Counted from the first letter of the stretch, positions 11,701-63,441 are shown. The stretch is 64,000 nt of DNA from Isurus oxyrinchus (GCA_026770705.1 JANJGN010000034.1:5518001-5582000), one strand, 5' to 3'. Notes: generated by a model not told the origin, from the sequence alone. Numbers and translations are program-made.

Positions 11701-11736
11701 ATCTGAAGGCATTGAAAGCACAGGTCAATGATTTAG
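11701..11736 (+). CDS. Micro-exon D1 (36 nt) DLKALKAQVNDL
   Basis: tttttttttcag|atctgaagg...gatttag|gtgggg; matches D class (L2, L5, K6, hydrophobic 9). Confidence 0.8.
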
Positions 11737-13565
11737 GTGGGGTGCTATTCTCTAATGCAGCAATTAAATACGTCATGTAAAGCAAAATGTGTATCCTGCG
11801 AAGTCATTGAACCATGGATTTGTGTAAGGTGGAAGGAGTCACTAATTTCCAAATTGCTGCTGCCAACTGTTTGACTCAATGACCAAACATTGCCTCTCGC
11901 TGTTCTTTTTCACAGCGAACCTGTATTCTTTCCTTTTGAAAGCCACTTGTTTAGTTAAATCCACCAGCTTTCGAGGCAATGCATTCAAAATCATGTCAAT
12001 AATTTGTTGTTAAAAGACCCTCCTTTATTATTTGATGCATTTGTCAGTTTCCCTAAACATATGCTGCCAGCTATTCACTCTTCTTTCACTGGAAACAGTG
12101 ATCCTGACTTATTTTTTATGAGCACTTAAAGTTTTGAAAACACTTTGAAACATATTCCGTTAATGTCATAGAAGGAATGTTCCACATCATATGGCACTTT
12201 CACAAAACTGATATCCTGCAAAGTTATTGCAGTTTCAAACAGCATCATTTGAGGAAGTGCATTCCATAACATAAGAACAACTCGCTGCTAAAACTATTGA
12301 TGGCAATCGTCTCTCCCTTTTGCTGCTTTGTCTGTTGCATCAAATCTTGGACTTCTGCTGATTCAACTTCGCTCATATGGCATCTCCGGTCATATTGAAT
12401 CCTGTTCAGGGGCAAGTTCCTTCTGCACTGCTATAATAATGGCTAAGTTTATTATCAGTGCTCTCCTTTCAATTTTCGCTGTATTTATAAGATGCCAAGT
12501 GCTATGTCATATTTATGTTACAAGTTTTGTCACCGTTCAATAATGTATTTGAAATGATTGTTAGATCAATTCAACACTACCATTGTCTGGCCCATTAAAT
12601 CATATACGTTGCTTTACGTTGAACTTATTCAGTGATGCAACATTACGGAGAAATGCATTGTCTCGTCCTGTCAGGCGCTAGTCTTTTCACAAATCGCCAC
12701 ACAGTTCGATGGTTTTGAATTGTTTAAAGATAACTGCATTATTTTCCTCTCACATGAGGATGCTGCCCTCACCCAAACCCTCTCTTCCTCCACTGTTCAA
12801 ATATACTGTTACTAGTCATTTAAGTCGCTGGTTCATTAGATTCTATCCCAATAAAACTAATGCACCTTTACACAGTGTTTGTGCCAATGCCGGATAAAAT
12901 GAAACACAATGATTTTGGTACTAATATTTTAGTCAAACCTTCAAATCTTCTCTCTTTAAATTTTTACCAATTCGAAAGCACCACCAGCAAGAGCCAAGAT
13001 GTTGTTCACTTTCTAGTAAAGGTCATTTAATTGGCCCCTGGTTCATTAAAAGACGACCAGCTATGGTGCCATTTATGGTCACTGTGTGCCCTTGGTTTCT
13101 AGATGATTGACATCAATTCTATTTTCCAATGTATCCTCAAAGTTCATGCTCCAGATGAACCCGAACACCAGCCTGGTAACACAATTTTGCAACACCTGGT
13201 TGTCGAAGGAGGGAACATCCATCTCCCGGGCACTAAAAGCACCGACACATCACTTTCCCCTTGCCCATAACGTGGTAATTGACAGACACACCAACGTCAA
13301 CTCATCATATCTGGCATGCGCACTACAATCTTTCCCCATCCTCATGGATGCGTCAATTAGAAAGCACTTTGAATTAAGGGCCGATGACCCACCGTCCTTT
13401 AGGGCTGAATGTGTTGTGCTTTCACTGAGCTAGCTCGTGGTCCCATCCATTTATCCCTGACAGTTAGACATCGTTGGGGCTATGTTAGCAAATGAAGTTC
13501 AGACCAGTTCAACTGTGCCAAGTGTCTAACCATGCGCTAAATTTCTATGTATTTTTTTATTTCAG

Positions 13566-13592
13566 AGAATAAACTCCAAAAGTGCCTTAAAG
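13566..13592 (+). CDS. Micro-exon A1 (27 nt) ENKLQKCLK
   Basis: tttttatttcag|agaataaac...cttaaag|gtgagt; KL..C motif. Confidence 0.9.
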
Positions 13593-15875
13593 GTGAGTAC
13601 AACACTGTTGTGTTCTAATCTATAACCGTTGTTTAAATCACTCAGTTCATTAATGTAATCATTGATTATTAAATGGATTTGGCTTGCTTGATATCCATTA
13701 TTCGGGATGCTCTAAGAAGTGATAAGGAGTTTGATTAACAACGATCAAAATTCCCTATATGTCTTTAAAGTAGTAAAACCTCATAAGCACTTCACAGACC
13801 AATTTTTAACCGTGCTTTGTCAACAGCTGTTTTATGGAAAATGTACGTTTTAGGTGTTTCTTTGCAGAATGAAAGCGCATTACTGATTAAAATTGCTTTA
13901 GGAAGAAATTTCAAGGTTTTAAGACACAGGTGACTGAGGAAACGACCACATGTTATGGAATATTCAACATTGGGAATGTGCAGAGGGGCGTCTAGTGAAT
14001 AATGCAGAGGTTTGCTCAGAATTGTTGGTTAGAGAAGTAGATGCGACTACCGAAGATGATCTTTAGAACGTTGAAAACATACGGCTTTACAGACCACAAC
14101 CTAATCACTTCAATAAGAATGCGTGTTCCAATCTACTAATCGATTGTTACTTTTGTTTGTAAAACTTAGTGCAGCTGTTTTTGCCTGTACCAATGTTTTG
14201 GGGAATCAGCAACGAATATCCATGATTTATCAAATTTGTGTTGCAGAACATCCCTTTACATTCACGTGCATGTGGCACGTTAAATTCCAATGCGAATATG
14301 TGTGAAGGAGTTGTATTGGTAACATGGCTGAACAATGAAATCAAGTGCAGACAAATCAATATGCTGAAAACACATAAACCTCTAAGGTGGAAATGAATAG
14401 TTTTGCTGTCAATTTCATACGCCGGCTGAGCAAATGTTAATATAACTTCATCCTATTTCTAAATATATAAAGATATTGAGTAAGATAACTAGACCTCGTT
14501 GGAGAACGCGAGCTTCAATGAAGGGTACTGACTCTCCACGCAGAAAGTAGGAGCACACGTTATCACGTTTAATTCTGTTCAAGTCGGAGTCCACCATCAC
14601 AGGTAGCGTGTTTGGAGTTAATGTATCTTGAATCCTTTCTTTGATTCCATCAAAACGTTTCAGGTTGACGCCACCAGCAAGATCATGAGTTTAACCAAAT
14701 TCACCCGGAGGTTTTTCCCCCTTCCCGTCTTATGATGACCCAATCGGGAAATAATCGGGTCATTTACACACTTCATATTAGTTAAGGCAACATTTCTAGT
14801 CATATGCGTTTGGAAAATGTCGAGACTTGTCAAGTACTAACCAGCATAGACCGAGCTCTCGGCTATTCAAGGAGAATCTGGAACAGCTTGGCCAACAAAC
14901 AACAATATCGCCATATGTTTATGGCATCACATGCAAGGTGAAGATTCGATTTCCATGCAACCTTGTTCTTAAGAAGATGTTGGTGAACAGCCTTAGGAGA
15001 AACTCTGAAATGTTTGTGGTGGATGCTTCACGAGTGTACTGTTAGATAAGAAGTTTAATGTTTGGTTTTGTTCTGCCGATGATGAAGGAACAGCAATGCA
15101 ATTCACTCATCATGGTATGAAACGTGAGGGACATTTTTTCCATTGTGCTCGGTACACTCATTCATTTAGCTGACAGAGCTCACGGGGTTGGAACTAGCTG
15201 ATGAAGATTCCTTGGCGATTTGTGGCAGTGCACATTGTAGATTCAATGAGCTGAAGTTCACTGCGCTAACAAGGTATGACGCCCGGCAAAAAAATAATGG
15301 CAGGTGAGTAGTGTTTGCCTAAATAACTGATATGAAGGAAATACATCCTTAACTCAGCAATTTTTTTAGGGATGCCAATAAGTTTGAAAACGGAATAGAA
15401 AATTAAGTTTGCATATTACACCTATCCCTCTACTAGTTAACTGCCAGCAAAAAGCAAATAAACAACCACTGCTGGCACGGTAACAATGTTTATACAATCC
15501 CATTTAATTTGCTATCGTGAGATATTCATTCCGATGCAGAAAAAAAATCAAAAGTTGGCGGTTCAGCCAACAATTCACTCTTTTACGCCGCATCATTCCT
15601 TACAGATGATTTTTTTTTAATAAGTGGACAAAGCTTTCAGGTGATGCTGAGGGTAGTGGAATAAATGACCTCAGCAACCTCTTATACTCTACGCCCGTTG
15701 AATTATGCTACTGAGTTTATGACTTTGCACTTGGAAAGTAGCAGGCGGCCGACACGTCAGCCGGCGCTTTGTATAAGAGCCAAAAACGTATTTCTCCTTT
15801 GAATATTGAGGTCCAGGGAATATCATAATTTAACTGAAAACTAATGGAGACTGCTGTGTTTGTGTTTCTTTTTAG

Positions 15876-15926
15876 AACTGAACGATTTGAAGGGCAGCCA
15901 GAAGGGAACATGTGAGAAAGGACAAG
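15876..15926 (+). CDS. Exon B1' (51 nt) ELNDLKGSQKGTCEKGQ; an alternative in-frame donor after 15911 gives 36 nt
   Basis: tgtttctttttag|aactgaac...ggacaag|gtgaat; occupies the B slot, starts EL and contains Cys. Confidence 0.7.
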
Positions 15927-16940
15927 GTGAATGTTTGCATATCAATGACGTAGGATCAATGACGTTTCATTGATTTAAGGAACGTGAAGCACAGGTCGCA
16001 GAATTCCCTTTTCTACGGAGCACTTAAACAATTAGCTTGGTGAGCGTATCAATTTGACATAGTGGGCGATGTGCTGATGATGTCGCACAAAATGTTCGAA
16101 CAAAAACAAAAGATAGAATGAGAATTATGATTTAGGCTCGGAATTGGAAAAAAAAGTCTCGCCTGTAATATCGTCGGTGTCATTGACGAGTTTTGGGATG
16201 CAAAGGCAAATTTTTCCCAGCACACAGATACCGCGTACAGGAGATATAAACATCTGTACCGATTCGATGGCCTCCATTTGGAATGGAATATAACTCGTAC
16301 ACTTGTACTATTTTAAAAAATGGAGTGGAAACTGTTTCAAATTAATCAGCTAGTGACGCTGCAGAAGTGAGGCCGAAGGTGTCTATCTACAATACACATG
16401 TGCCGACTAATTGAATACGCAGTAAATAAGAAAATAGGTAAGTATAAGAAATAGATGAAACAGCTGACAACAATTTATTCGAGCATAGAAGATGTGGCGA
16501 AAAGATTGTGAAACATAAAATGAGGCAACAGCTGATTAAAATGATGGAAATGTGTCTGGACAGCACCCTTAGTGAAACAAGAGCAAGTCAACCTATAATC
16601 TGCTGAGAGTAAGCAATCATAGGAGACATTAATGAGGAATGCTTACAGTGAAATAAAGAAGTAATTAAACACTGCAGAATATAACGAATCTAGAAAATAT
16701 ATTGGCGGGAAAATGAGGTGGGCCAGTAGGTGTTATTGAGAATACGACAATGACATCAGGAAAAAAAGGGACGCTGCTATCTGAAATACCATAATGTAAC
16801 TCATAACCATCAAAAAATAAAACGTCATAAAGGATCAATGACTCTAAATGATTATTTTTACGGTGTTTCTAATAACGAATGTAAAGTGGAAGAAGAAATA
16901 TGCAGGATAGTTAAGGGAATTGAGGTAAACATTACACTGT

Positions 16941-16973
16941 GATAATAATAATAATAATGATAATAATGATAAT
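16941..16973 (+). repeat. Imperfect (ATA/ATG)n microsatellite
   Basis: gataataataataataatgataataatgataat. Confidence 0.85.
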
Positions 16974-17166
16974 CGGTCAGGGGCTTCAAATGCCTCGATA
17001 TTAATTGGATGGGAAATTTAGGGAAATGGGGCAAGAGATTGATTTTGGTAACAGGTGAACAGGAAACCTTACTGTAACTACATCTACAAAATCCAAGAAG
17101 TTAATATTTGCTTGCGGATCCAGTAAATGCAAAACAAACAAGAGGACTAAAACTAGTGAACAAAGT

Positions 17167-17447
17167 CAGAATTACCTGGAAAAACTCAGCAGGTCTGGCA
17201 GCATCGGCAGAGAAGAAAAGAGTTGACGTTTCGAGTCCTGATGACCCTTCAACAGAACTAGGTGAATCCAAGGAAGGGGTGAAATATAAACTTATATTTC
17301 ACCCCTTCCTTGGATTCACCTAGTTCTGTTGAAGGGTCATCAAGGACTTGAAACATCAACTCTTTTTTTTTCCCGCCGATGCTAGCAGGCCTGCTGAGTT
17401 TTTCCAGGTAATTCTGTTTTTGTTTTGGATTTCCAGCATCTGCAGTT
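17167..17447. mobile_element. Inverted (foldback) pair of Penelope-like terminal repeats
   Basis: 17167-17289 is a near-perfect reverse complement of 17292-17416, centred on ...gaaatataa|ac|ttatatttc...; the right arm continues to about 17447. Confidence 0.92.
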
Positions 17448-20339
17448 ACGTGTACTTTTTTTAAATAATGAAACCTTCTGGATTTACTGGACCATAACAC
17501 ATCAAGATGCAATATAGAGCAGGCGAGGACTTATATATGACGAAGGATATGTTAAAAAAAGACAGACAAGAAGTGCAGAACAGTTTATTTTGCGATGCTG
17601 ATAATAGAACTTGGGAAATTAACTGGGCAGCGATTTTTGTAAAGTTCGATATAACACAGCAGTGTGAAAGTTTAAAGAAAAGTTAAAAGTGTTCAAAGCA
17701 AATGTTCTGCTAAAGCGACTGCACAAACTAAAATTATTGAATTCGTATTGATGAATGAGTGCATAAGGTTGCAACTTATATATCTTAAATAGGCATATAT
17801 TAAGTATGTAAAGAAGTTAGGTTGCATCATAAGAGTGAATAAGAAGTTAAGAGAGAAGCAACGTTACATTTGGCAAGGTAATGAGGAAATATCGGAAAAA
17901 AACAAGTTTAATGAAGCAAAACAGAAATAGAAATAGCTTACAGGTGCATCAAAATGACATAGGACGTTAGATTCTGAATTGGAGTATAATGGAAGAGATA
18001 TAACAATGCCAAATTTAACGTTTGATAGATGACAGTGATATAATATACTTAGGATGTTTTAATACACATCAGTGACATAGGTCAGATGGGCATGGATTTA
18101 AATGATAGAACAACTAATTAAGCAGTTGCATTAACAGGAATGAATTAAAGCAGAATACAAAAGACGTATTCAATAATATCATATATGCCTTGGCTTGAAG
18201 GTATTGCATTGGCAAATATAAAAAAAATAGCCCTTGGAGGAGATAGCGGGGCTTTAATAGAGATAGTTAATAGTTGTTCCGACAATAAACAATGTAAGGT
18301 GCCGGAGGAATTGTTAAAAATCTAACATAACTCCCATACTTGTAAAGAAAGGGGAGGCAGAGCGAATGGGGAACTATTGAACAAATATCCAAATACTAAT
18401 GATGGGTGAAATAGTGGACTGCCTGCCAAAAATCACAATACGATCAGCTGGTAATGAAAAAAAAAAACATGTAGTACTGAATTGCCAGCGTAGATTTCAA
18501 AAGACATGCCCTAGTTCCGGAAACATTGTAGAGTTCTCTGTGGAGGTGAGAGAGAGATGAAAATGGCAAGCAGGATATGCATTTTGAAATTATTCTCAAA
18601 AGCCTTTCAAATGGGTGCCCCATAATGGACCGAGGAATAAGGTTATTGAGTGTGGTGCTGGCGAGCAATTGGCAAATTAAATTACTACCTATCACCAAGA
18701 TATGAATGAGAGATTGGAAGGAAAGGGTAGATATTCCCAACGGCAGAAAAGGGGAAGGTGAAAAAAGCATTCCGTCGGCTTTACTTCCACAGAGCTCGAA
18801 CTGAAAGTTAGTGACGTTATCTTAATCATGCATGAGAACTCTGTAGGCCTCTACCAGAGTATCGTGTGAACTGCTGGTCTCCATGTCATAACCATGATAT
18901 ATAAGCTTTCGTGCCGTTACAGGTAAGATTTAGAATGATATCAGTAATCCATCATAGACACAAGAGAAAATAAAGAGGAGGTGGGGTTTCTAATAGAGGC
19001 AATTAAAATATGAAAAGCTTCGTTATATTCGATATAGAAAGACTGTTTCCACTTTGACAGCAACAGCAGCCATCATCAAGAATGCAATAAAAGCAAGGAT
19101 AGAAATAAAAGCTCAAACAGAGAATTGAGGGTGTAGAATGGGAGGATGGCGGAGCTCGTTGAAGCGACTGGTGTCCATGCATTTCTTCTGACGCTAGTCA
19201 ACTATTCGGTGCTATACGGACTGAAAAATTAGGATGATAGATTTAAATGAAAGAGGTTTGAAGGCCAAAGAACGGCCTACATGGACTGGTTCCATTTAAT
19301 GGCCAGTTTCTGTTTCGTGTATCACACTTAATCAAGTTAAAATAGCGAATTCGGTTAAGGATATCTCGTTATCATTCTGAGGCGAGTAGTTGGGTACTGT
19401 GCATTAACAAAACGTGCTCTTGTGGACTTACGCAGAACCAGTTATGACTGGCGCACATCGTCATTAGCCCGAAGCACAACTGCTCTGATATTACCAGAAA
19501 ACCGGCATCTTGATATTCTCCAAATATTTTGTTAGGTGACTGATTATCAGTAAACTTTATTCAGAACACGTACAGGTGCAAGTATAACATTCGGTCATGT
19601 GTTGCGATCTGTCCGATGTTACTACTGAAGATGTTTTTTATTCCCCCTCCCATTATCGTCAATAGTAACAAAATAAAATGGTTGTGTGCTAAATAAATAC
19701 TGGAAGTAAATGCCCTTGCATTGCAGGCGATCTTCCTAAGCCCCCTCCCGATGAAGGTGAAGGTGAGGAATGAAATAAAATTACTCACCAGACTTGTCGG
19801 CTCTTGATGTTTCAATGATTGATAGATTAAATAAATATACAAATTAAGTGAGATGCGTTAAGACATTTTGTTAAGTGCATAGGAATTTTTTGTCAAAATG
19901 CTGCGTTCACCATCACATATGCGATGCAGCTGAGCTGAATTTCAGATAAAATCCCTATGATGGTTTCATCAGGAACTGCCAGATTCGTGCTAATAGCGAA
20001 GAGGAACATTGGTCTGTCGTTTTTCTTTATTGTATATGGAAGCAAATTTCATCAACTTTGGACACCCAAAAGGTGAACATATTTTTGGCGCTTATTTTAT
20101 GAATTGCTTTAACATATGAAAAACACACACTATTCAGAATTCAATTTAAGTGAATCCCCATAGACCGATATACACCTCCTTCGGCTATCATCTAAAGACA
20201 AGCAACGAAACTTCTTTCAAAAGGGAGGTCCGAAGAACATGTCATGAGCACGAGTTAAATATAGTATCGAGGGCTGCATATATGTTGCACAACAAACAGT
20301 GCATGTTAATAAGAAACAAATGCTTCTCCTTCAATTCTT

Positions 20340-21070: not shown

Positions 21071-21793
21071 TTATGGAAAGTCTCACAGCCAGCAGAGATA
21101 TCATTGACTGCTATCCCACCGCGTCTATTTTGTGAAAAGCAATTTACCTATGAGCAACAATCGTGAGAATAAAGGTCCCCAAAACCCCGTCCTAAATGAT
21201 CGCAAGGTCCAATAAATAAGAGGTTGACACTCTTACTTCTGTTTCTAACCAGCATTCCCAGATAATGATGCACCTACTTATGTATTCATTCTTGGAACAC
21301 GTGCATCACCTCGCAAAGAACATTTAGATAAGCGAAAGTAAGTTAGCCTAGTTAACATTCATTTGGTGGCAAATGATTCAGCTTTGCAAGTTGCTTCAGA
21401 TGGTTGGCCATCATAGTTACAATCACACTTAACATGATTACATAAACTTAAAACGTAAAGCGCACTTGCATTTAGAAGGCTCATACATGGTAAGAACGAT
21501 TCCTGGTGAGATTCAGAATAATAATTCCAGCAGACAGAAGACAAGGTAGGAAAATGGAAATTAGACTCCCTAATGTTCCAGTGCGCATCCCAGCTAAAAA
21601 AAAATAGTAATGGTTGTATAAATTTCCGCAATGCAACAGCATGTACATGAAGCTGGTTGTATGAAGTGACGCTAAATGACCTGGGAAAAACTAACAGTGT
21701 TGTGAATTTTGAGCCGTTGACAATAATTAATTTGGAAATGCATGCAAAGCAATGAATGTCAATCTGATCGCACTGAGTTGCACTTCATTGCAG

Positions 21794-21820
21794 ATTTAGA
21801 GCTTCTGAAAAAGATTTTAG
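21794..21820 (+). CDS. Micro-exon C1 (27 nt) DLELLKKIL
   Basis: cttcattgcag|atttagagc...gattttag|gtaaaa. Confidence 0.85.
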
Positions 21821-25526: not shown

Positions 25527-25562
25527 AACTGGAAAAAGCAAAGACACTGCTAAACGACAAAG
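25527..25562 (+). CDS. Micro-exon D2 (36 nt) ELEKAKTLLNDK
   Basis: tcttatcttaaag|aactggaaa...gacaaag|gtaaga. Confidence 0.85.
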
Positions 25563-26313: not shown

Positions 26314-26340
26314 AGATAAAGCTCAGGAACTGCGAAAAAG
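26314..26340 (+). CDS. Micro-exon A2 (27 nt) EIKLRNCEK
   Basis: aacattttcag|agataaagc...gaaaaag|gtagat. Confidence 0.85.
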
Positions 26341-26442: not shown

Positions 26443-26469
26443 CTCTGAAGGAAAAGTGCAATAATGATG
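26443..26469 (+). CDS. Micro-exon B2 (27 nt) ALKEKCNND
   Basis: ctatattcgtag|ctctgaagg...aatgatg|gtgagt; 102-nt intron from A2. Confidence 0.9.
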
Positions 26470-28875: not shown

Positions 28876-28879
28876 CCAC

Positions 28880-29590
28880 GTGATTATTCATATGCCATTT
28901 CAACACACTACCCTGCTCCCATTCCCACATGCCTGTCCTTGGCATGCTGCATTCTTCAAGTGAAGCTCAACGCAAACCAGTGGAACAGCACCTCAGCTTC
29001 CGTCTAGGCACTTTACATCCTACTGGACTGAATATTTTGTTCATCAATTTTAGACTATGTACTCCCTCCTTCATCCCCACCAACTTTACGTTTCTCCCCC
29101 CCCCCCCCCCCCCTTTTTGTGTTTTCCAATAATTTATATAGATTTTTCATTTCCCACCTATTTCCATTATTTGAAATGTATTTCCACCGATTGTTTGTCT
29201 CTACCTTTTAACCTTCTAAATATCCCCTCACCCCAATCCCAGTACAGCTCTCCATACTTTCTGCTTTCTGCTCTTCATTAACATATTCCTGTAGAAAATA
29301 TTACCACCTTCAACACCTAAATGTCATTTTGTCTGTGACATCTTTTGGTTATCTCTATCAACCACTGGCTTCTTGCCCCAACAACAACCCACCACCCCCC
29401 CCCCCCAAAAAAAAAACAGCTTATATTTCACCCTTTACTTTCCTATTTTTACTTAGTTCTGTTGAAGGGTAATCAATTCTCGAAACGTCAACGGTGCACT
29501 TCTCCCGCGATGGTGCTGGAGCTGCTGAGTTTTCAGGTATTTCTGTTTCTGGTTTTCTCTTGGATTTCCAGCATCCACAGTTCTTTTATT
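28880..29590 (+). mobile_element. Penelope-like element 3' fragment
   Basis: HFN, MPVLGMLH...EAQRKPVEQHLSFRLGTLHPTGLNI plus terminal block agttctgttgaagggt...ctcgaaacgtcaac; collinear with 1730-2470. Confidence 0.88.
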
Positions 29591-31689
29591 TTATCTCTGA
29601 GCTTTCTTATCCATTATGCCTCTGCCGCTGAGTAGGCTGCACGCCACAATGCCGACATTATATCCTCTCCCTTGTTAACCCTTTCATCAAGCACAAACAA
29701 ACAAAACACATACACATGCACACACTGGCACACACACTCTCATGATCACTTCTACCCACTCTCTGGCCAGGTGACTGCTGTTTCGCAACGACACCCTTGA
29801 AATAAGTGATTTGCTGTTTGGGCCCGTGAAATTGATTAAATTCTTTTTTTTTCTCTGTGCCTATTTCTTTCTTTACGTTCAGCGAATGAAAATAGCAATT
29901 ATTTTGAATTCTCGAATGTACAATAATAAAACCGATATAGGATGTGCTGGGCTGGAGATCACTGCAGAATATAATGGAAGGAAAGTATTTTCACAAATGC
30001 CAATGCTTCTCAGCTACAGTATATTGGCTATGATGGGAGAGTGGAATTTGAGAAAGATAAATATTTCTGTTGATACCATCTTCATCATAAACAATCTTCC
30101 ATTTTGTAGACCAGTGTTATTTCCTGCAAGGGGTATAAACCTGCAGGCATGATTATACCCCACCTCGCTCCACGTTCCCCACCCCCAGAAAGTCAGTTAA
30201 TCACAGCTTCCTGTTGTTATGATGCGCCTTCTCTTTATTCACATTGGTGAATTCTATCAATATCTGTTGTGAAATGTTTCCCTATTGCGGTCTCTGTGGT
30301 TGAATAACTGCCATTGTATTTGTGTGCTACGCAATATTGGTATATGGCTTACGCGTGCCCTCATGACGTGAGTAAGCCACAAACGATAAGAATGGTATGG
30401 TTCAGTACTTTTTATCAGCGGTTGTTAGTGGATGGTTCGTCAATGTTCCCATGAACTGAGCAGTGGAAGTGGCTGGTGGTATCCTTTTTAGGACATGGTA
30501 ATCGCTATTTAATTCATTACTCTGGACACCTCTTGTGAAATAATTAGACTAGCTTTTTACTGTGCTTCAAATTTATTGCACTATTTTCTTTGCACAGGCC
30601 TCGACTGCTATGTTTTTCCGCTGCTAGCTCTGTAATTCTTTGAGTTCATTTTCTGTCATGGGCAGCTTTGCTGAAGATTCAACTGCATATTTATTTGTTT
30701 AATCAATATGGAAGGAACCTGCACGTTCAGAGTTGTAGCTTGGCTTTAAGCAGCGTTCGGCAGTCACATTGTTGTGTCCTCTGTCTGAGCGTGCGACAAA
30801 TGACCTGGGCTGGGTGTGCTTGTTGCACACAATATCCTTTCATCTAAAATAAAGGGAAATATTGTCCTATTTTTTGATTCACAATAAATATGCATTACGG
30901 TTTACCATGGGCAGATATAATATTATGTTTGTTCATTACAATCTTTCAGTGGTAGGTTTTAAGAAGTCTTCTTTGCATTAATTCGAATCCGAGAAATTGG
31001 AATGTTCACTCATAATAGCACAATTTTCAGTACCATGCATACAGCTTCAGACACTGGAGCCGAAGTTTTCATGTTGAGGAACAACTCGACACATTCAGAT
31101 GTGAGCTGATTAGTGTCAAATGACATTTACTGCATACAATTATCAAGAAATGAACATTATCAAGGATGGTAACTTTCCCACTTCTCCTTCACAATCAATG
31201 TCAATGCCATATCCCGTTGTCAACCAGCCGGGGTCTGACATCATTAAAGCTCCAGTTTGTAATCTGATGCTTAGTTCCCATTGAGCAAAGATGAGCTGGA
31301 ACACTTTAAAACAAGTGTAAATACAGGCACAGGTAAGAGGCTGAAAATTATATGGCGAATAAATGATCCCTTCCCTCCTGGAAAAGTATTCATTATGATT
31401 ATGCATAATTCAACATTATCATGACATCACCTTGACTTCCTAGCTGCGTGTTGTTCCAACAAAGCTCAAGAAGCTCGACTCCAACGACGGCAAATCATCC
31501 CCTCTGATGGTCATCATCCATCACCTAAATATTCATGGTCTCGACCACTGATGCGCAATGCCAGCAGTGTGCACCAAGTATAAAATGAATATCCAGAAAT
31601 TCTCAAGATGAATTGGAGTGAACATTGAAAGTGCATGCCATCTACCGTAGGACAGCAGAATGATTGCAGCACAGAGGCAGGTAATTCAG

Positions 31690-34466: not shown

Positions 34467-34502
34467 AATTGTACAGACTGAAGGGTGTACTCAGCGATAC
34501 AG
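34467..34502 (+). CDS. Micro-exon D3 (36 nt) ELYRLKGVLSDT
   Basis: ctttatttttctcag|aattgtaca...gatacag|gtgctg; weak donor but class motif retained. Confidence 0.75.
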
Positions 34503-41191: not shown

Positions 41192-41218
41192 AAAATAAGC
41201 TTCGTGCCTGCGAGCGAG
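41192..41218 (+). CDS. Micro-exon A3 (27 nt) ENKLRACER
   Basis: atttatttcag|aaaataagc...gagcgag|gtaaat. Confidence 0.9.
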
Positions 41219-42115: not shown

Positions 42116-42142
42116 AACTGGCAGACAAGTGCAAAAGCGATG
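42116..42142 (+). CDS. Micro-exon B3 (27 nt) ELADKCKSD
   Basis: tattccttacag|aactggcag...agcgatg|gtaagt. Confidence 0.9.
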
Positions 42143-43541: not shown

Positions 43542-43568
43542 ACCAAAGGCTACTTGAGAAAGATTTAG
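43542..43568 (+). CDS. Micro-exon C3 (27 nt) DQRLLEKDL
   Basis: ctttctacattgcag|accaaaggc...gatttag|gtaaaa. Confidence 0.9.
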   Translation, partial: TKGYLRKI

Positions 43569-47002: not shown

Positions 47003-47038
47003 AATTGGAAAAACTGAAGTCCGATCTGCAAAATGCAG
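47003..47038 (+). CDS. Micro-exon D4 (36 nt) ELEKLKSDLQNA
   Basis: ttttgttttccag|aattggaaa...aatgcag|gtcagt. Confidence 0.9.
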
Positions 47039-48175: not shown

Positions 48176-48202
48176 AAAACAAACTTGATTGGTGTAACAA
48201 AG
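48176..48202 (+). CDS. Micro-exon A4 (27 nt) ENKLDWCNK
   Basis: ttttgcttttcag|aaaacaaac...aacaaag|gtaagt. Confidence 0.9.
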
Positions 48203-48310: not shown

Positions 48311-48337
48311 CTTTGCAAGAAAAGTGTAAAAGTGATG
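48311..48337 (+). CDS. Micro-exon B4 (27 nt) ALQEKCKSD
   Basis: ttattctttag|ctttgcaag...agtgatg|gtgagt; 108-nt intron from A4. Confidence 0.9.
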
Positions 48338-49429: not shown

Positions 49430-49456
49430 ATCGACGGCTTCTTGAAAAAGAATTGG
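49430..49456 (+). CDS. Micro-exon C4 (27 nt) DRRLLEKEL
   Basis: ggtcatttcag|atcgacggc...gaattgg|gtaaga. Confidence 0.9.
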
Positions 49457-52168: not shown

Positions 52169-52204
52169 ATTTGCAACAGATGAAATCAGATCTGCAAGAT
52201 GCAA
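52169..52204 (+). CDS. Micro-exon D5 (36 nt) DLQQMKSDLQDA
   Basis: gtgcttcccag|atttgcaac...gatgcaa|gtaaga. Confidence 0.88.
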
Positions 52205-53817: not shown

Positions 53818-53844
53818 GACGGAAACTGAAGGAATGTCAAAAGG
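53818..53844 (+). CDS. Micro-exon A5 (27 nt) RRKLKECQK
   Basis: cttatttctcag|gacggaaac...caaaagg|gtaaat. Confidence 0.88.
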
Positions 53845-53941: not shown

Positions 53942-53968
53942 AACTGCGAGGAAACGCCAAGAGCGATA
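53942..53968 (+). CDS. Micro-exon B5 (27 nt) ELRGNAKSD (Cys replaced by Ala)
   Basis: tttatttcatgcag|aactgcgag...agcgata|gtgagt; 97-nt intron from A5. Confidence 0.88.
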
Positions 53969-54730
53969 GTGAGTCAAACGTTGCAACCACATTACATGCT
54001 GTAAATAAAAAGCCGGATGGGGTGCTAGATTCACAGAAAAGGTGATCGTTCAATGTTTTAAATGCGTGGACATTGGGAAGAAATTTGAGATTTGAAGGAA
54101 ATAAAGTCTTTTAAAAGCCCTTGGAAAATTAATGGTTTTGCACCTGGAGCACTGTATAGAAACTGACAGCAATCTGTTTCTGGAATTGAATATCAGATGT
54201 GAACCCTCCATCAAATACGCTTCTATGGCTTTACCATATAGGAAGTCTTCTTTTTTCATATAACGCTAGGTTGACCAGAATGGGAATGCCAAGAAACAGA
54301 TGCCATCAGAATTTATACAGTAATTGCAATGAGGGCGGGTAGTTTTCTTTTACTGTGGATAATTTAGGCAGAGCAATTTGGACCTTGTTTCCCCAAGCAT
54401 GTGAGCGAATCGGAGCATAACTGATATCACAATTCTGACGATAATGCTCCTTTCAACAGTTACGTGTCCCTGCTGAGTTTCAGGTCCGTTGACTGTATAT
54501 TCGGTGAATCTATATCTATTGCCGAGAAATATGTCATCTCTAGACCACGTTTACGTCTATGAAGTTGAGACACTGGATGGGTTAATAATATAGTACTCTA
54601 CAAACGGGCTTTTCGGTTGAATATTTAAAGTGCTCAGCAACAATCGACCACAAAGTAAAGTGACTGAACGGACAAAAAGTAACTCCATAGCGATTTTTTG
54701 AACTGAGTGTTAATATTTCTTCAATTATAG

Positions 54731-54757
54731 ATCGGAAGCTTTTAGAAGGGGAAATAG
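54731..54757 (+). CDS. Micro-exon C5 (27 nt) NRKLLEGEI
   Basis: tcttcaattatag|atcggaagc...gaaatag|gtaaga. Confidence 0.88.
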
Positions 54758-56720
54758 GTAAGAAAACAGGGCTTTACTTCTATGATAACCAAATATTTTG
54801 AAACATTTTGTACCGTTTTTCACTGCCTGATTAAATTTAATCTTATTCAACATTTCAGAAAATATGTACTGAGCTCGGAGTTGCGCAGCGTAGAATTAGC
54901 GGAAAAGCAAAGGGTCTTAAATGCTTAACATTATGAGGATAACTTTGATAGTTTACGTTTGTACTGCTTTGAGTATGAAGGTGAAGAAATGATGTCAACA
55001 TTAGCATGAATAAATGGATTTAGGATGGAATGAAACTTGTTTCTCTTCCAGTAGAGTCCAGAAATAAAATTATTTAACTGTAAGATTAAAAATACGGAAA
55101 TCCGGAAAGGTGTGAAGATCAGGATCCATTTTTTTCATACAAGACAAAAATGAAATCTAAAACCATTGCCTCAAAACGGTGTTAAGATGCATCTGTTGTA
55201 CATGTTCTTTTTTCGAACTTATATTGGTAGAGCTTTTTTGTTCCAGAGCGTAGTCAGGCACGGAGCCACAGTGGGGAGATGGAATTAGGATAGACATTAG
55301 TCATGACTTGAGCGACTGGTGTAAAAGATTCTAGCATTTTGGAAGGCCAATTCCCTCTGGGACATTATAATTCATATTGATCTTTGGCGAAATTGCTAAG
55401 CTTACATTTAAGTCAATCAACCCAATACTTTATTGTAAGATTTGTTTTACTTGATTGGGGCATTGAAGAAGTTAATAATCCGCCTAAAAGAAATATGTTT
55501 CTTGAATGTGCAGTTGAAGTATAATTTCGATAAAGACTAAAAATAATCGTGGCCACAATGGTTTTGTCTACCCCCCAGTGAGATTAATTTTCGACACAGA
55601 CAGAATTGATCGGTGATTTAACCAATGCGTTGACATTATCAACCCACCATCAAATAAAAGCTGTGAGCTTTTCAGAGACCACTTCGTGAAAATATGGTAG
55701 TAGATACCACTCTTTCCATATTTGCAGCTTTCGTGAATAACTTTTGCTTTCATCTTTGTTGCACTACTGCTGAACCATTGAGCTGAAATTATTGCAATTC
55801 TATTTCATAAGTATTCAAACAATGACGAAAGGCATGTGGTCAACAATCATGCTAATAAACCTATTTTGGGTGTTGGTGTTAAGTAAGAAGCAGATTAAAG
55901 ACCAAATATATTTTTCATCCCCCACCGTGACAATGTCCAACCATTATTTGTCGTTTACATACTGCAACACAGGTAAATTCAATTCCCATCTCAGCCTCGA
56001 GTTTAGGTGTTCAGATTGAACATATCACTGCTTCCCACAGTTTGGTGTGAATAATACGGAAATGGATGCAGGTCACACTCTAGACGGGTCAGCGCAATAT
56101 CTAAGAACTTTACTTCTGATATGGTCGGAGTGAGACCCTGCCGAGGAGGGGGAAATTCAGTTGAAACTGTAAGCCAACCAACGCTCCATTTTCTGTTGTA
56201 TCAGGAGAACTCGTAGTACCACGATTCTACAGAAGAAGGCAGAACAGTGCAGTTCACTCCGGATTCGGAAACAATATTTAAACATAATGTAACATCATTG
56301 AAACAGACTTTTCCTTCGTCAGTGAATTGTTGTGTATGGATTATTCGTGTTCAAAAATTAACTGCCGCGGCACTTCCTACAACAAAACTGTGTTTTCACC
56401 TCAAAACTAAATCATGCATTGTAAAATAAAGTTGGACACACAATTTAGTGAAAGCTACAATATAACCTGAGGCGTTCAGTTTCACCTGTTACTAATTACC
56501 TCATTACACAGTGAAGGCGTTTCCAGTCTCAGCACGCATATTTTCATCCAATCGTTCCACGAGCTGTTTTCCGGACAAAGGCATATTTTGAAAGGCTCAT
56601 GCTATGTAAAATTTTAAGCATAGAAATTTAAAAGATAGAATACACGTTGTGGCCAAAGACGATGTATACAGGGCGTATTAGATTTGTTCTAAGAATTCTG
56701 CTTTTGATTTCGGTTTTCAG

Positions 56721-56756
56721 AATTGGAAAAACTGAAAAGGAAGCTGAACAATACAG
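56721..56756 (+). CDS. Micro-exon D6 (36 nt) ELEKLKRKLNNT
   Basis: ttcggttttcag|aattggaaa...aatacag|gtgaag. Confidence 0.88.
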
Positions 56757-58804
56757 GTGAAGAAAGATAATGCCCGATGGCATTTTAGGATATATGGCAT
56801 TGGTGACTGAGTGGTGCAGTGGTGTTGTCGCTGACTTTGAATACAATTGCAATGGCTGGAACTGCCCAAGGTGTCATCAATGTTGACATCGAACTGGAAA
56901 TCATGAAGTCTCAAGGCATCAGTTCAAACATGGGCAGGAGAATTTCCTGTGCATTATCACGTACCACCAAACCAGAGCTGATGATTCAGTGTTCCTCCAT
57001 TTTGAACATCTTTTGCAGGGCATGCTGTCGTCTGGTAGAGCGCAGAATGCAATTTGTGTGGGTGACATTGATTTTTATCAGAAAGAGTGGTTCGGTATCA
57101 CTGGACAAGTACTAAAGGGCACTGATGATAGACGGAGCCTCCAGCAACTGATCATGGAAGCAACAGAAGGGAAAAACATACTTTCCATCATCCTCACAAG
57201 CCTGTCTGTCTATCAGGCTCTCACTAGCAGTGACCCCCGCAGAGTTCTTGTGGAGACCATGCACTGTCCACACATTAACATTACACTCCATCGTGTTGTG
57301 TGGAACCACCGCCATGGCAAATGAAATAGATTTCAGATAGATTGAGAAGCTCGAGGCTGGCCAAAGAGAGGGCAGTGTAAGATATCATCAGCAGCAGAAA
57401 TGCACCCAATCTCAATCTGTGACCTCATGATTAGAATATCCCCTACTGTACCTTTACGATCAAACCAAGAGATCAACACTGGTTGAATGAAAATTGCAGA
57501 AGGGTAAGCGAGGGGCAGCACCAGACAAATGAGGTGTCAATCTGGTAAAGCTACAAAAATGACCTCTTGCGTGCCAAGCGGCATTCGGAGCACCTTAAAG
57601 ACAGACCTAAGCGATTCCAAGACCAACGGATCATATCTAAGTTCTGTGGCCCTGACACATCTAGCCGTGACTATTTGGGGTGAACTAAGCAGTCATTTGT
57701 GGAATAGGTTGCACAAATATTCCTATCCTCAAAGATGGAGTAGCCGGGCAAATCAATGGACCAGATACGGCTGAATTACTTGCTACAAACTTCAACCAGA
57801 AATGCTGAGTTGATTATCCATCTCAGCCTCCATCTAATGTCCCTTGCATAACAAATGCCTGTCCCAGCCAAATCGATTTACTTCACGTGATACCAAGAAA
57901 CGGCTGAAGGCACTGGACAGTGCAAATTCAGTGGGCTCTGCTGATATTCCGGCAATGACACTAACATTTTTCTGTTAAGAGCTTGCCGTGCCTCTCAAGA
58001 AGCTGTTCCATGACGGCTACAGCATTGGCATGAAGTCGACAACGTGAAAAATTGCCCAAGTGTGTCCTGTACATAAAAGAAAAACAGGAAATCCAACACG
58101 GCGAATCACCACACAATTAGTTTATTTCCATTCTACAGCAAACTGATGGAAGGCGCTATCAACAGTGTTATTAAACGGGAACTTGCTTGGGTTCCGAGGG
58201 TTACCCTCAGCTATTAAACACATTGTAGCCTTGGTTCAAATATACTACAATATCTGAGCTCCCGAGGTAAGATTGATTGCCGTGGGATGGAAGGCCACAT
58301 TTGAACGATTGTGGCATTATAAAGCCCTAGCAAAATTGGAGTCAATGAGAATTGGGGAAAAAACTCCCCTCTGGTTAGAGTCATAGCTATCAGAAAGAAA
58401 AATGTTTATGCTTGTTGGAAGTTCTTCATATCAGCTCCAGGACATCACTGCAGGAGTTCCTCAGGGTAGTGTCCTCGGCCCAAATACCTTTAGCTGCTTC
58501 ATTAATAAAGTTCCTTCCATCATAACGTCAGAAGTGGTGGGTGTTCCCTGATGATTGCGCAATGTCCAGCACCATCTCGATTCCTCAGATACTGAAGCTG
58601 ACCATGTAAAAATGCAGCATGTCCTGGAAACATACATGCTTGGGCTGAAAGCAAGTGAAACATTTGTTCAACAGAGGTCTCAAGCAAAGACCATCTCCAA
58701 TAAGAGGAAATATAATCTTGATATTCAATGGCATTAATATATCTGATTCCAAACAACCAATATCCTGGTCGTCAGCATTGAACAGAAACTGAACAAGATT
58801 AAAT

Positions 58805-58843
58805 AGTTCTGTCGAAGGGTCATGAGGACTCGAAACGTCAACT
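58805..58843 (+). ncRNA. Minimal type I hammerhead-ribozyme-like motif in PLE end (variant core)
   Basis: AGTT-CTGTCGA-A-GGGTC-ATGAG-GACTC-GAAA-CGTC-AACT: stem I AGTT/AACT, stem II GGGTC/GACTC, loopless stem III; core position A6 is U. Confidence 0.6.
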
Positions 58844-58939
58844 CTTTTCTTCTCCGCCGATGCTGCCAGACCTGCTGAGTTTTTCCAGGTAATTCTGATT
58901 TTGTTTTGGATTTCCAGCATCCGCAGTTTTCTTTGTTTT
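58806..58939 (+). mobile_element. Young short Penelope-like terminal insertion with 12-bp target-site duplication
   Basis: caagattaaata at 58794-58805 and 58940-58951 flanks a 134-bp block nearly identical to the arms at 17167-17447. Confidence 0.9.
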
Positions 58940-60189
58940 CAAGATTAAATATAGTCTGGAACAGACACAAATGAAAACAGGTGACTAGAAGAGCAGATCA
59001 GAGGCTCGGAATCCTGCACTGAGTTACTCACCACCTGACTCCCTAATCCCTGCCGATAATCCATAAAGCACAAGTCAGAAGTGTGATGAAATACTCCCCG
59101 CGTGCCGCAATGGGTGCAGCTCCAATTCAAGATGATTGACACTATCCATGAAAAAGTAGACCACTTAATTGCCACCCCAGCCACAAATATTCACTCCCTC
59201 CACCACCAACGCACAATGCCCTTGGTGTGTGCTATCTGCACGGTACACTGAATAAATTCATCACGTCTCCTTATAAAGCATCTTCCAAATAGAATACCAC
59301 TAAAATCTGGCAGGACAACATCAGCATATAGATGGCTACACCCCTGCTGAAGCTTCTGAACCAAGCCACTCGCCATCCTGACTTCTAAATTTGTTGTTGT
59401 TCTTTCACTATCTTTGGTACAAGATCCTAGAATTCCCTCTTCAACAGCAGTGTGGGTGTAACAACGCTAAATGGACGGCAGTGATTCAAGAATGCAGCTG
59501 ATCGTCACTTTCTCAATGGCAATTACAGAGGGGCAATTAATTAATTATTTTGCCTATCCAGCGAAACCCACATCACTTGAATGCATAAATTAAAAAAAAA
59601 CTTTTGTGTCGATATTAAATTTGTGAATTTGACCCCAGCGAATCTTTAATGCCTCTCTGTGTTTTTTTTTTATATTCGCCAGAGTGATACAAGTACTGTC
59701 AAGTTAAAAGAGAACAGATTTCATAATCGAGACTTACATATTTTTTTGAATATGGAATATGCTGCTAACTTTAGATTGAGCTTTTCCAATTGGTTTAAGT
59801 ATGACTTACGTGTAACAACGGGCAGCGGTGTCAGATCATCACCTTCACTTTGAAGTTGGACAGTTCATGATAGGTGCCAAGAAGCACTTACTTGCATTTA
59901 CAGCAGCCTAAATGTAAATTTAATTCTCCACCTTACAGCCCCCTTTCCAACCCGTCCCGCAGCTATCCCGTGCTCTACAAAATTAAAAAAATGTTGAGGA
60001 AAGTTCCCAAATTGTAAACCGTAAATTTTGCTTAGCCATTGGTGTTATTTGTGACAGAATGTTATTTTATCAGATGAGTTTTGTCGCCTGATGGATTGTT
60101 TCCAACATCAATACCTGCAAGAACGAACTGGGCCGAAAAGCCTGTTTTATTTGCTGATGTGATTTATATGCCTTTTATTTCTTATACAG

Positions 60190-60216
60190 AAGACAAGTTA
60201 CGACAGTGTGAAGAAG
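60190..60216 (+). CDS. Micro-exon A6 (27 nt) EDKLRQCEE
   Basis: atttcttatacag|aagacaagt...gaagaag|gtacca. Confidence 0.88.
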
Positions 60217-60319
60217 GTACCAAACGACAAAAAACAAAATACGTTTGCGGTTTGACTTTTAAAACTTATCATAACATTCAATTTTCTTCCGGCTGACCAA
60301 TTATAATTTTGTTTTTTAG

Positions 60320-60346
60320 AGTTGCGTAGAAAGTGCAAAACTGATG
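60320..60346 (+). CDS. Micro-exon B6 (27 nt) ELRRKCKTD
   Basis: ttttgttttttag|agttgcgta...actgatg|gtgagt; 103-nt intron from A6. Confidence 0.9.
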
Positions 60347-60649
60347 GTGAGTAACACAAATAAATAATGCTCACTTTACTGCTTTGGAATACGGAATTTA
60401 ACCAATCTGTGACAGTTATCATTTGTGCAAATATTGTACCCTTTATTTCACATTGCTGTTAAAATCAGGTCCTGATGTTGATTATAGAAATTTTGAAAGG
60501 CTGCCCTTGGAAGTGAGGGGGCGTGGTGTTTAAAACAGGGTAAGTTCATGGGCATTTTGTTTTTTTTTCACTAAACAACGTGTAGGAGAGCGCTTGAAGA
60601 GTTCAACAATCAATGTTATTACCTGATACTAACAGCAGTGTGAAATAAG

Positions 60650-61200
60650 GTGTCCACTTCCTGAATGGGTGCATGAGCAGAGGGACTTGGCAGTGAATGT
60701 AGATAGGTCATTGAAGGCCGCATGGCAGATGATAAAGCATATAGTATCCTGAGCTTCATGAATGGGGTCATAGAGCACTAGAGCAGCGAGGTTATATGGT
60801 GGGTTTTCCTAAAACGCTAGTTATAGTTCAGCAGGAGTATTGTATACAGCTCTAGGCGCCAACTATAGGAAGGATGTCAATACTTTGGAGAGAGTTTTAT
60901 GCAACAAAGGTTCCAGGAAGGAGAAGTTTATGTACTTGAAAATTGATTGAAGAGGTTGTCACTGTTCTACTTGGAGAAGAGAAGGCTAAAGGTAGGTTTA
61001 ATAGATGTGTTCAAAACTAAAAAAGGGGTGGAAAGATTAGATGTGTAGAAGCTGTTCGCCAATTTAATACAAAACGAAATTGCAGTGATTTAAAGCGATT
61101 TGTAATAGAAGTAAATGAGATGTGAGAAAGAAAAGTTGTTCATACAGTGACTAGATCGATTCTGTAATTCAGTGCCTGGATGTGTGCGGGAAAAGCTGAA
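60650..61200 (+). mobile_element. CR1-type LINE RT C-terminal fragment
   Basis: QRDLAVNVDRSLK; ctagttatagttcagcaggagtattgtatacagctctaggcgccaactataggaaggatgtc resembles LVRP.LEYCVQFWAP.YRKDV; LFYLEKRRLK. Confidence 0.85.
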
Positions 61201-61789
61201 AGAACTCGCTGTCAAAGAGTGCATTTTATGGAGCGTTGCCAAAGAAAGGCAAAATTTAGTGATGCAGTGCCCTTTGATGAGAGAGTTACAAGGATGGAAT
61301 GCCCGGTCGGCAATGCTGATGACAGAATGTTAAAGGGTGCAAAAGTGGCATGAATTGGATGTGTCCAGAGATCTTTGAGCTATTTCGGCCTGAAGGAGAT
61401 AAGACGGTGCCACTGCAGAGCCGGTGAAGGCATTTCAAAACAAACGTGAGTCTTTAAAATCATCTCCTAACTAAATCAAGAACAAACGCTACTTTCCAGA
61501 TCATGGATGCTGCGTGACCAGGAATAGTTGCGTGTTAAGATGCAGGAACTTCATTTCTTTTTTGACGAGGTTCAGTTTATCTGGCGATTTGCAATAATTG
61601 AAAATTTGCATTGCAATGAAGCAACGGCTACAGTAGGAGCCAACGAATCCGAAGCCATTTTTTTTCAGAAGGCGGAGGTAGGAGTAACGTTACAGCTCTG
61701 TGCTCAACAACTTATTTCCAAGCAAAATATAGCATCGCAGTTGCGAAAATTTGCGGCCCGCTGCAGAGTATTAAATTATAGATCCTGAG

Positions 61790-62080
61790 CTGTATTGACA
61801 AGTTCAATGTAGAGAGGTTGTCCCATCTGAAGTGAGAATCGAGCATAAGAGATTTGTTTCTTTTTCATCTCAGGGAGTAGTGAGTTTTTTTTTGAACTCA
61901 TCCTGAAAAGGCAGTGTCGGTAGAGTATTTGAATGCATTTAAGCAGAAGTGGAATGAGTATTGCTAAAGAAGGGGGTTATCGGCTGTGAGGGGTAGAAAG
62001 AATTTTATAATCAGACGAATCATCAACTTACTGAATGGCAGAGTTGCCTAAAGGGCCGGTGACCTAGTTCTGCTCCTAAT
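61790..62080 (+). mobile_element. CR1-type LINE 3' end fragment
   Basis: tgtagagaggttgtccc...ctcagggagtagtgag...tgaatggcagag...ttctgctcctaat tail. Confidence 0.6.
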
Positions 62081-63414
62081 ACGCGCATGTAAATTCGCAA
62101 GAAATGATTTTGTCACAGGGAGAAAATGGCTTCGATCTTCCCAATAATTACTGTGAATACATTTGTGACCAGCCACTTCTTAATTACTGGCAAGCAGTGA
62201 AGAGGGTGTGAGTGTTTGTGATGAGGTGAACCTGCGTTTTCTCATTTACATATGTATCCGATAGTAGCTCTGCCGTATGAAATATGCTCAGAGAAGCATG
62301 TAAATGAAAGTAAAGAGAGAGAGAGGGATATTTCAGGAAAAAAAAAGATCTGTAGAAAAATGCATTTTGAATTTTTAAAAACACTGTAACTCATGTCAGC
62401 ATAAAACATGATACATTTTTCAAAAGAACTACGAAGTGGCTGACACTTTATTTGAAATAGGAAGCTGGAAGTCAATCAGCCTAAGGGCAAAGATTGGGAA
62501 ATTATTAGAAATCCTTGTCAGGGATAGACTGAAATAACATTCAGAAAGGCATGGAGTGATCAACATAACCAGAATCGATGAGCTAAATGAAAACCCTATT
62601 TGAAGAAGTACATTGAATTGTTTGCTGGGGAAACGGAAAGATATGTTTCAAGTGGCTCAGTGTTAATTGTCAATATGTATTTTCTATGCCATCGGCGTGC
62701 AAGAAAGGAGTCGCAATACCCAAATGGTGGCACATAGAAGTATAATCGAAGCTGTGCTATGAATCACAATGAGATCAGTGATATAAGCAGAAGATGGTCG
62801 TAGCAGATGGCTGTTTAAAAACAAAACATGGACATGGCTTGTAGAAGAGGTTTGCGTCCTTCTTTTTTTCCGCTTTTGGTTGTTTAATGAAAGACATTTC
62901 CTGTATATGTTTTTAGACAATACAAAACCTGGATAGGTACGCATAATGATGAGTGATCTTACATTCTACAGGATCAAAGCAATGTGGTAGATGGAACTCT
63001 AAAGCATATGTCCGGGTCTCATTACTGCTGCTTCCGGGGAGAAGCGAGTGGTGGGAGGGGGAGGGCGGGTGATGGATGTGATTGAAATGGCAGAATATAA
63101 ACAGGTGAATTTTACAGTTAATTGAATCTGATAAGCTGACACTTTTAAGAAAATAACGAGAAATGCAACTCATAGAGCAACACATTTAAGGCCATTTCCT
63201 GAACTTCATATTTCTGGCTTCTTCGAAGTTCCAATACTTGCACACACAAGCACACACTGCAGTCAAGCAACTCACCATGGTTTCTGTCTTTCTCCCTTGA
63301 GGCCCTGAATGTGCGTAATCATGTCTGCATTAATAAACTCTTTGAAGGCTATTTTCCGAAAAGATTCAAACTCCGAAAATTATAATATATTTCACATTCT
63401 CCTCCCTGGTACAG

Positions 63415-63441
63415 AAGAAAGATTGCTGGAAAAAGATATAG
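63415..63441 (+). CDS. Micro-exon C6 (27 nt) EERLLEKDI
   Basis: ctccctggtacag|aagaaagat...gatatag|gtaaaa. Confidence 0.88.
   Translation, partial: KKDCWKKI

Follow-up and report, generated by a model that had tools for sequence, protein, structure and literature searches.

A predicted megabase-sized micro-exon gene for a coiled-coil rod with a terminal B30.2 domain in the shark Isurus oxyrinchus

Micro-exons of the window and the surrounding array

A stretch of 64,000 nucleotides (nt) of the shark Isurus oxyrinchus, referred to below as the window (GCA_026770705.1, sequence JANJGN010000034.1, here C34, positions 5,518,001-5,582,000 of a 4.98-Gb genome), contains 23 very short exons that can be considered part of a much larger predicted gene, encoding a coiled-coil rod that ends in a B30.2 domain. 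All 64,000 nt would lie within this gene, on its + strand. The 23 exons, with AG acceptors and GT donors, were all recovered by a splice-site scan on the + strand at window positions 11701-63441 (Table 1). Six of them are 36 nt long, sixteen 27 nt and one 51 nt, giving 699 nt in total, or 1.35% of the span. When joined they contain no stop in phase 1, compared with 21 stops in each of the other two frames, and synonymous codon choice is varied: 116 of the 212 same-residue codon pairs between cassettes differ in codon, and in the A exons leucine is written as CTC, CTC, CTT, CTT, CTG and TTA, lysine as AAA or AAG and cysteine as TGC or TGT. The exons and their splice sites, the stop-free phase-1 join, the mixed Leu, Lys and Cys codons and a coding share of about 1.4% had been described in the initial annotation, and all were reproduced, the codon lists exactly.

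The same annotation grouped the exons into six cassettes of the order D-A-B-C. This arrangement is complete in cassettes 3-6, but cassette 1 has a 51-nt D-like exon where B is expected, and cassette 2 has no C exon, the best candidate between B2 and D3 scoring 8.1. Four of the five A-B introns measure 97-108 nt, indicating that duplication of the cassette probably took place at the level of genomic DNA.

Like micro-exons of 15, 21, 27 and 36 nt extend on both sides of the window, from 4.87 to 6.40 Mb of C34. A scan from 4,859,457 to 6,396,339, covering 1,386,883 of 1,536,883 bases without N at a threshold above 16 bits, gave 337 matches on the + strand versus 15 on the - strand. The former comprise 156 of 27 nt, 116 of 36 nt, 29 of 21 nt, 19 of 15 nt and 17 of other lengths, and encode 3,275 residues. 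With some 47 further exons extrapolated for the 150 kb of the span outside the scan, and allowing for false and missed matches, the array is estimated at about 370-390 exons and 3,700-3,900 residues; it starts at about C34:4,868,774. The predicted gene measures about 1.54 Mb, with a median intron of about 2.6 kb. Low-score exon candidates were left out of the count, since they are kept in the tandem paralog described below about as often (8 of 18) as minus-strand controls (6 of 17).

The make-up of the array varies along its length. Pairs of a 36-nt and a 27-nt exon are commoner among the scored matches than the four-exon cassette (34 D-s, 8 D-s-s and 5 D-s-s-s runs) and make up much of the array outside 5.08-5.30 Mb, where 21-nt exons dominate. 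The D-A-B-C unit is concentrated in the window, which holds 5 of 11 B-type exons; the proposed period of 12+9+9+9 amino acids (aa) stands as a local cassette, but not as the defining unit of the gene. Another internal tandem unit, recognized from C34:5,884,001-6,140,000, recurs in at least seven further places with 81-83% identity, carries 15-, 27- and 36-nt exons, and is spaced at about 28-30 kb where the sequence is continuous.

That the window exons are chance splice-like motifs is refuted. In a test over C34:4,860,001-5,950,000 (1.09 Mb), candidates were picked by intron-side splice score alone, with matrices trained partly on these exons but with length and frame not scored. On the + strand lengths of 21, 27 and 36 nt occurred 33, 71 and 61 times, where other lengths averaged 10.6; the - strand gave 7, 9 and 7. 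Stops were present in 15 of the 165 candidates in phase 1, as opposed to 97 and 90 in the other phases.

The encoded peptide has the character of a coiled coil. The hydrophobic period of the window peptide is 3.53, with a power of 407 (mean 151 and maximum 436 in 1,000 residue shuffles), close to 39/11 = 3.545, and all 12 of the 200-residue blocks from the contiguous part of the array gave periods of 3.35-3.71. As 39 residues, about 11 turns, fit a coiled coil, the 39-aa period is not alien to heptad proteins; a 36+27-nt pair equals exactly three heptads and a 21-nt exon one heptad. In the window, Leu-Leu-Leu-Ala-Leu-Cys-Leu follow each other at a spacing of 3-4 across D, A and the start of B, after which the register slips. 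The rod encoded by the 337 matches consists of 21% Lys, 17% Leu, 10% Asp, 9% Glu and 0.4% Pro, with 4% Cys; the latter occupies the fourth residue in 53 of the 116 36-nt exons and mostly lies three residues after a Leu. The earlier suggestion of a hidden protein-coding gene for a coiled-coil-like rod, akin in design to the heptad exons of butyrophilin and chicken BG genes, is borne out.

Table 1. Micro-exons and weaker exon-like candidates of the window, with their state in the tandem paralog
Feature	Length (nt)	Window position	Strand	Paralog and remarks
D1 (phase 1-1)	36	11701..11736	+	keeps AG/GT
A1	27	13566..13592	+	kept
Exon at B1 place, D-like start	51	15876..15926	+	alignment break adjoins
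C1	27	21794..21820	+	kept
D2	36	25527..25562	+	kept
A2	27	26314..26340	+	identical
B2	27	26443..26469	+	kept; no C after
D3	36	34467..34502	+	kept
A3	27	41192..41218	+	kept; 1 synonymous change in organism A DNA
B3	27	42116..42142	+	kept
C3	27	43542..43568	+	kept
D4	36	47003..47038	+	kept
A4	27	48176..48202	+	kept
B4	27	48311..48337	+	kept
C4	27	49430..49456	+	kept
D5	36	52169..52204	+	kept, peptide unchanged
A5	27	53818..53844	+	kept
B5	27	53942..53968	+	kept; Ala in place of Cys
C5	27	54731..54757	+	kept
D6	36	56721..56756	+	kept
A6	27	60190..60216	+	kept
B6	27	60320..60346	+	kept
C6	27	63415..63441	+	identical
Weaker candidate, outside the 23	51	3443-3493
Weaker candidate, outside the 23	15	21531-21545		kept
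Weaker candidate, outside the 23	15	60977-60991		donor lost

The introns of the window hold decayed retroelement copies and a repeat family like a SINE (short interspersed nuclear element), at 844-2470, 28893-29592, 17315-17457 and 58798-58938.

The terminal B30.2 exon, the tandem copy and relatives

At its 3' end the array closes with a 27-nt exon followed on the same strand by a phase-1 exon of 172 codons (C34:6,395,819-6,396,339) that belongs to the B30.2/PRY-SPRY superfamily of beta-sandwich domains, as had been suggested for the flanks of the window. Pfam SPRY matches it at E 1.8e-13 (51.1 bits, cut-off 26.3), and its best sequence match in the PDB is BTN3A1 (E 6.8e-20). A structure model with a predicted local distance difference test score of 67 gave a Foldseek E of 1e-10 and a template modelling score of 0.70 to the BTN3 B30.2 domain, entries containing BTN3 occupying ranks 1-8. 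There are five B30.2 exons of this type on C34, at 2.71 and 3.47 Mb on the - strand and at 4.82, 6.40 and 7.50 Mb on the + strand; all are stop-free, and micro-exons lie upstream of each where sampled. No other B30.2 exon of this type was found between C34:4,817,018 and 6,395,821, which supports a single gene, without proving it. The C34 genes are located away from the class I genes of the major histocompatibility complex (MHC): 31 of 33 class I matches are on C21, two on C16 and none on C34, while a search for MHC class II gave no match anywhere in the genome and is uninformative. Conventional B30.2 exons, which account for most of the 150 scored matches, are clustered in large numbers at C21:82-118 Mb, where MHC class I matches lie between them.

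The gene ending at 7.50 Mb is a tandem copy, with a copy region at C34:6,433,690-7,496,959. Its alignment begins at 4,827,827 of the first gene; the counterpart of 4,850,373-5,091,193 (240 kb) is absent, and so is a stretch matching 5.23-5.435 Mb, yet the tested exons are intact. Over 54 aligned exon pairs, which contain no stop, identity is 90.3%, as compared with 82.1% for the adjoining intron sequence. Of their 108 splice dinucleotides 102 are kept, and the ratio of non-synonymous to synonymous substitution rates (dN/dS) is 0.41; for the B30.2 exon it is 0.49. Copies with both AG and GT kept exist for 22 of the 23 window exons (21 within the 54-pair set, D5 separately). The micro-exons are under purifying selection, as the initial annotation had proposed from codon use. 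DNA of organism A covers 41-61 kb of the window at about 94%, with 159 differences in one 2.6-kb piece; among the 40 differences listed of about 1,340, one lies in an exon (A3) and is synonymous, which does not amount to a test of constraint.

Relatives were gathered by a full HMMER scan and look-ups. Models with a coiled coil plus SPRY are present in Leucoraja, Scyliorhinus, Callorhinchus, Narcine, Cetorhinus and Hemiscyllium, under misleading automatic names such as TRIM39-like and with no function attached. They include XP_042192744.1 of Callorhinchus ('nuclear-pore anchor-like', 1,697 aa), XP_038671249.1 of Scyliorhinus ('zinc-binding protein A33-like', 945 aa) and XP_055510696.1 of Leucoraja ('TRIM69-like'), as well as XP_038668997.1, XP_069775385.1 and XP_042191567.1. 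The gene, which had been thought possibly lineage-specific and mis-annotated, is therefore not specific to one species, having relatives in skate, ray, catsharks and chimaera in the form of misnamed database models. In the eight relatives scanned, Pfam found no RING, B-box or immunoglobulin (Ig) domain, only SPRY/PRY over or near the cut-off. In a midpoint-rooted tree of 58 B30.2 rows, grouped by crude motifs, a branch supported at 100/100 separates the five C34 domains, together with ten relatives, from 43 other rows, 40 of which carry TRIM- or Ig-type motifs; 13 near-duplicates or isoforms and most rows lacking a motif are excluded, and the RING/B-box rows are limited to the best 22. All named members of the clade are database models from cartilaginous fishes.

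The Cys motif of the rod recurs in the two long models. In XP_042192744.1 the motif [LIM]xxCxxx[LVI] surrounds 10 of 22 Cys (shuffled mean 0.84, none of 1,000 shuffles as high), and more weakly, in XP_038671249.1, 4 of 12 (1 of 1,000 shuffles); none was found in three shorter relatives. RefSeq isoforms, mostly of 200-460 aa, differ internally in five of six pairs, by 9, 7+9, 6, 9 and 9 residues, as the skipping of micro-exons would produce. Shared-word protein searches, of low sensitivity, gave 0, 2 and 5 matches, and the ESM Atlas holds SPRY clusters including proteins of 1,277 and 1,579 aa, which are leads only.

The 5' end and the readings of the locus

At the 5' end candidate starts are available, of which none fixes the first exon. 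A 111-nt phase-1 candidate exon with a strong score lies at C34:4,859,457, with an ATG near its start and hydrophobic residues first; it has no paralog at E<=1. The best of 36 signal-peptide first-exon candidates, at C34:4,840,063, was rejected, as it lies in a decayed long interspersed nuclear element (LINE) and has lost its ATG and GT in the paralog. The sole exon running from an ATG to a phase-1 donor that is kept in both copies is hydrophilic. A signal-peptide exon at 6,421,428 was likewise rejected as the first exon of the family, since it heads a nectin-like IgV gene, and no credible first exon was found for the minus-strand sister gene, whose best candidates are LINE fragments.

Several observations concern the neighbourhood. 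Upstream of the first well-scored micro-exon of the tandem copy, at a distance of 38 kb and in the same phase, there is an orphaned signal-peptide exon of nectin type, a possible hybrid start of that copy. A nectin/PVR-like gene at C34:7,510,700-7,524,148 has signal-peptide, IgV and transmembrane exons in an open frame (Pfam V-set E 1e-10; best PDB match nectin-2), and in a further copy at C34:6,421,428-6,424,700 the IgV exon is broken and the alignment stops before the transmembrane exon. A B7/butyrophilin-type IgV-like frame, possibly decayed, occurs at C34:7,605,101-7,605,433 (Pfam 21.2 bits, below cut-off), and a weak Pfam 7tm_1 match (E 8.5e-05, below cut-off), perhaps a pseudogene fragment of a G-protein-coupled receptor, at C34:6,416,292-6,416,582.

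The expectation of further domains in the flanks was borne out for B30.2; Ig and transmembrane exons were not found in the DNA scanned. In a tblastn search over 2.03 Mb with 66 query proteins (18 with Ig motifs, 49 with RING/B-box motifs), the Ig-motif queries found nothing in the scanned gene or the 42 kb upstream, while detecting two neighbouring IgV exons, and the 49 RING/B-box-motif queries matched B30.2 exons only. A Pfam scan of 149 of the 182 open frames in the flanks gave no Ig, and no transmembrane stretch was found in the joined rod, where the best 19-residue hydropathy is 1.13.

The 23 exons of the window are read here as part of one gene of about 1.54 Mb, predicted to encode a rod of about 3,700-3,900 residues with a C-terminal B30.2 domain and probably intracellular, a reading to which we give roughly an even chance. 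About 370-390 phase-1 exons would be joined, in an end-to-end transcript, into a single coiled-coil rod. It may form a parallel dimer with Leu at position a and Cys at d. A coiled coil rises 0.15 nm per residue, and the rod, if uninterrupted, could reach about 0.5 micrometre and present B30.2 heads, acting as a cytoplasmic spacer or scaffold that places them on a protein ligand. The exons are all multiples of three and of phase 1-1, so that duplication, deletion and skipping would cause no frameshift, and the D-A-B-C unit would represent one locally amplified cassette. A bolder form, put forward tentatively and with somewhat less than even confidence, is that a single transcript made up of about 380 exons, more than the 363 of titin and with few outside the range of 15-36 nt, spans 1.5 Mb and encodes a half-micrometre coiled-coil filament tipped with B30.2 heads. 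Besides TRIMs and butyrophilins, the B30.2 proteins would then have a third branch, confined to chondrichthyans and going back at least to the divergence of sharks and chimaeras, in which length is set by duplicating, deleting and skipping cassettes.

A number of points weigh against the one-gene reading. The joining across 1.5 Mb is inferred. No RNA record was listed for the B30.2 exon and the 3' region, and two putative RNA contig sets gave no exon joint among the matches listed; neither result is informative on expression. The 5' end is represented by candidates, gaps of up to 52 kb have no scored exon, and 150 kb of the span fall outside the scan. About 15 of the 337 matches are expected to be false, and their join held one stop. 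The longest database relative, of 1,697 aa, is under half of the predicted length, and three of eight relatives' models have a hydrophobic start, which fits secretion or anchoring. A dN/dS near 0.4 means moderate constraint, and the order of the exons contributes little to the periodicity, since a power as high as observed was obtained in 73 of 1,000 shuffles of exon order.

It is rather unlikely that the product of the same rod-B30.2 gene is secreted, or is anchored through a hydrophobic segment at its N-terminus, with its core Cys forming inter-chain disulfides in an extracellular fibre or with the rod as a BG-like tail of a membrane protein. The hydropathy of the first 12 residues is 2.93 in the chimaera, 2.66 in the skate and 2.67 in the Hemiscyllium models, with a basic cluster after the hydrophobic start in the chimaera; the Cys hold a fixed core position, and the 111-nt exon opens with hydrophobic residues. 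The other five of the eight models have no such start, and what automatic models give as N-termini may come from translated intron sequence. In the DNA, the best signal-like first exon is borne by a LINE and degraded in the paralog, the signal-peptide exon at 6,421,428 belongs to the nectin-like gene, and the only start exon kept in both copies is hydrophilic. It is unlikely that the array serves as a pool of optional exons or as several shorter units, with subsets or internal promoters in use and the full-length form made rarely or never. Every exon is frame-neutral, relatives' isoforms are short and vary by 6-9-residue blocks, intron read-through and truncation are frequent in the tails of chicken BG (PMC5938342), and the paralog lacks 240 kb of the 5' array while keeping other exons; against this stand the one terminal B30.2 exon for the whole array, the 54 exon pairs over 0.5 Mb that are stop-free where aligned, and the long chimaera and catshark models. 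It is very improbable indeed that the exons are chance splice-like motifs of a duplicated non-coding sequence, or that the gene is a dead relic. No transcript is in hand and the sequence abounds in decayed retroelements and tandem duplications, but the biases in strand, length and frame, the synonymous codon use, the constraint and retained splice sites in the paralog, the five stop-free B30.2 exons and the homologous proteins of other chondrichthyans all argue against it, more firmly for chance than for a recent death of the gene.

If the one-gene reading is right and splicing proceeds as predicted, the number of exons, almost all of them micro-exons, would match or pass the 363 of titin (PMC11931755), and the gene would lend itself to a natural test of exon definition, with exons of 21-36 nt in their hundreds separated by introns of about 2.6 kb. 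The locus also presents a clear record of a coiled coil built by duplication of exon cassettes, an example of automatic annotation truncating and misnaming megabase genes, and, for the cartilaginous fishes, the most ancient living group whose immunity is based on antibodies, a B30.2 lineage not described before.

Comparison with known systems

No published description of the family was found in a search that covered few subscription papers. In the DNA scanned, exons for Ig, RING, B-box or a transmembrane segment were not found, and as judged from this sequence the shark gene is neither a butyrophilin nor a TRIM as these are defined. Nor does it fit the definition of a BG gene. With the TRIMs that carry B30.2 (TRIM21/39/58 and finTRIM) it shares a coiled coil followed by B30.2, but its rod is micro-exonic and far longer, no RING/B-box exon was found, and its B30.2 domain falls outside the TRIM rows. 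The chondrichthyan coiled-coil-B30.2 models belong to the same B30.2 clade, and two long ones share LxxCxxxL, but none comes near the predicted length of about 3,800 aa. The enterophilins of the guinea pig combine a soluble, extended heptad rod (leucine zipper) with B30.2, without Ig or RING, and are also far shorter.

Butyrophilins of the BTN/BTNL type have heptad repeats and then B30.2 (PMC12841164, PMC7348870), and this layout of heptad micro-exons before a B30.2 exon is found in the shark gene. They differ in having few heptads as opposed to hundreds of exons, and in their IgV, IgC and transmembrane exons, not found in the shark gene. As read by eye from the sequence alignment, W350-H351-Y352 of BTN3 corresponds to G-S-W in the shark domain. 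H351 is the phosphoantigen residue of the BTN3 B30.2 pocket (PMC7348870), and since it aligns to Ser, phosphoantigen sensing by the shark B30.2 appears unlikely.

Chicken BG, together with the BG-derived 'zipper protein', shares with the shark gene a long coiled coil encoded by many small phase-split exons, as well as tandem genes with expansion, deletion, hybrids and variable exon number (PMC4046983, PMC5938342). BG genes have a signal peptide, a single IgV and transmembrane exons and 27-37 exons mostly of 21 nt, and no B30.2 is described, whereas the shark gene has over 300 predicted exons mostly of 27 or 36 nt (29 of 337 are of 21 nt), a B30.2 domain and no Ig found. The soluble BG tail, the 'zipper protein', regulates actin-myosin in the chicken gut (PMC4046983, PMC5938342). 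By analogy, the shark rod may be viewed as an extreme, free version of the butyrophilin/BG tail, with the 'zipper protein' as its nearest functional precedent.

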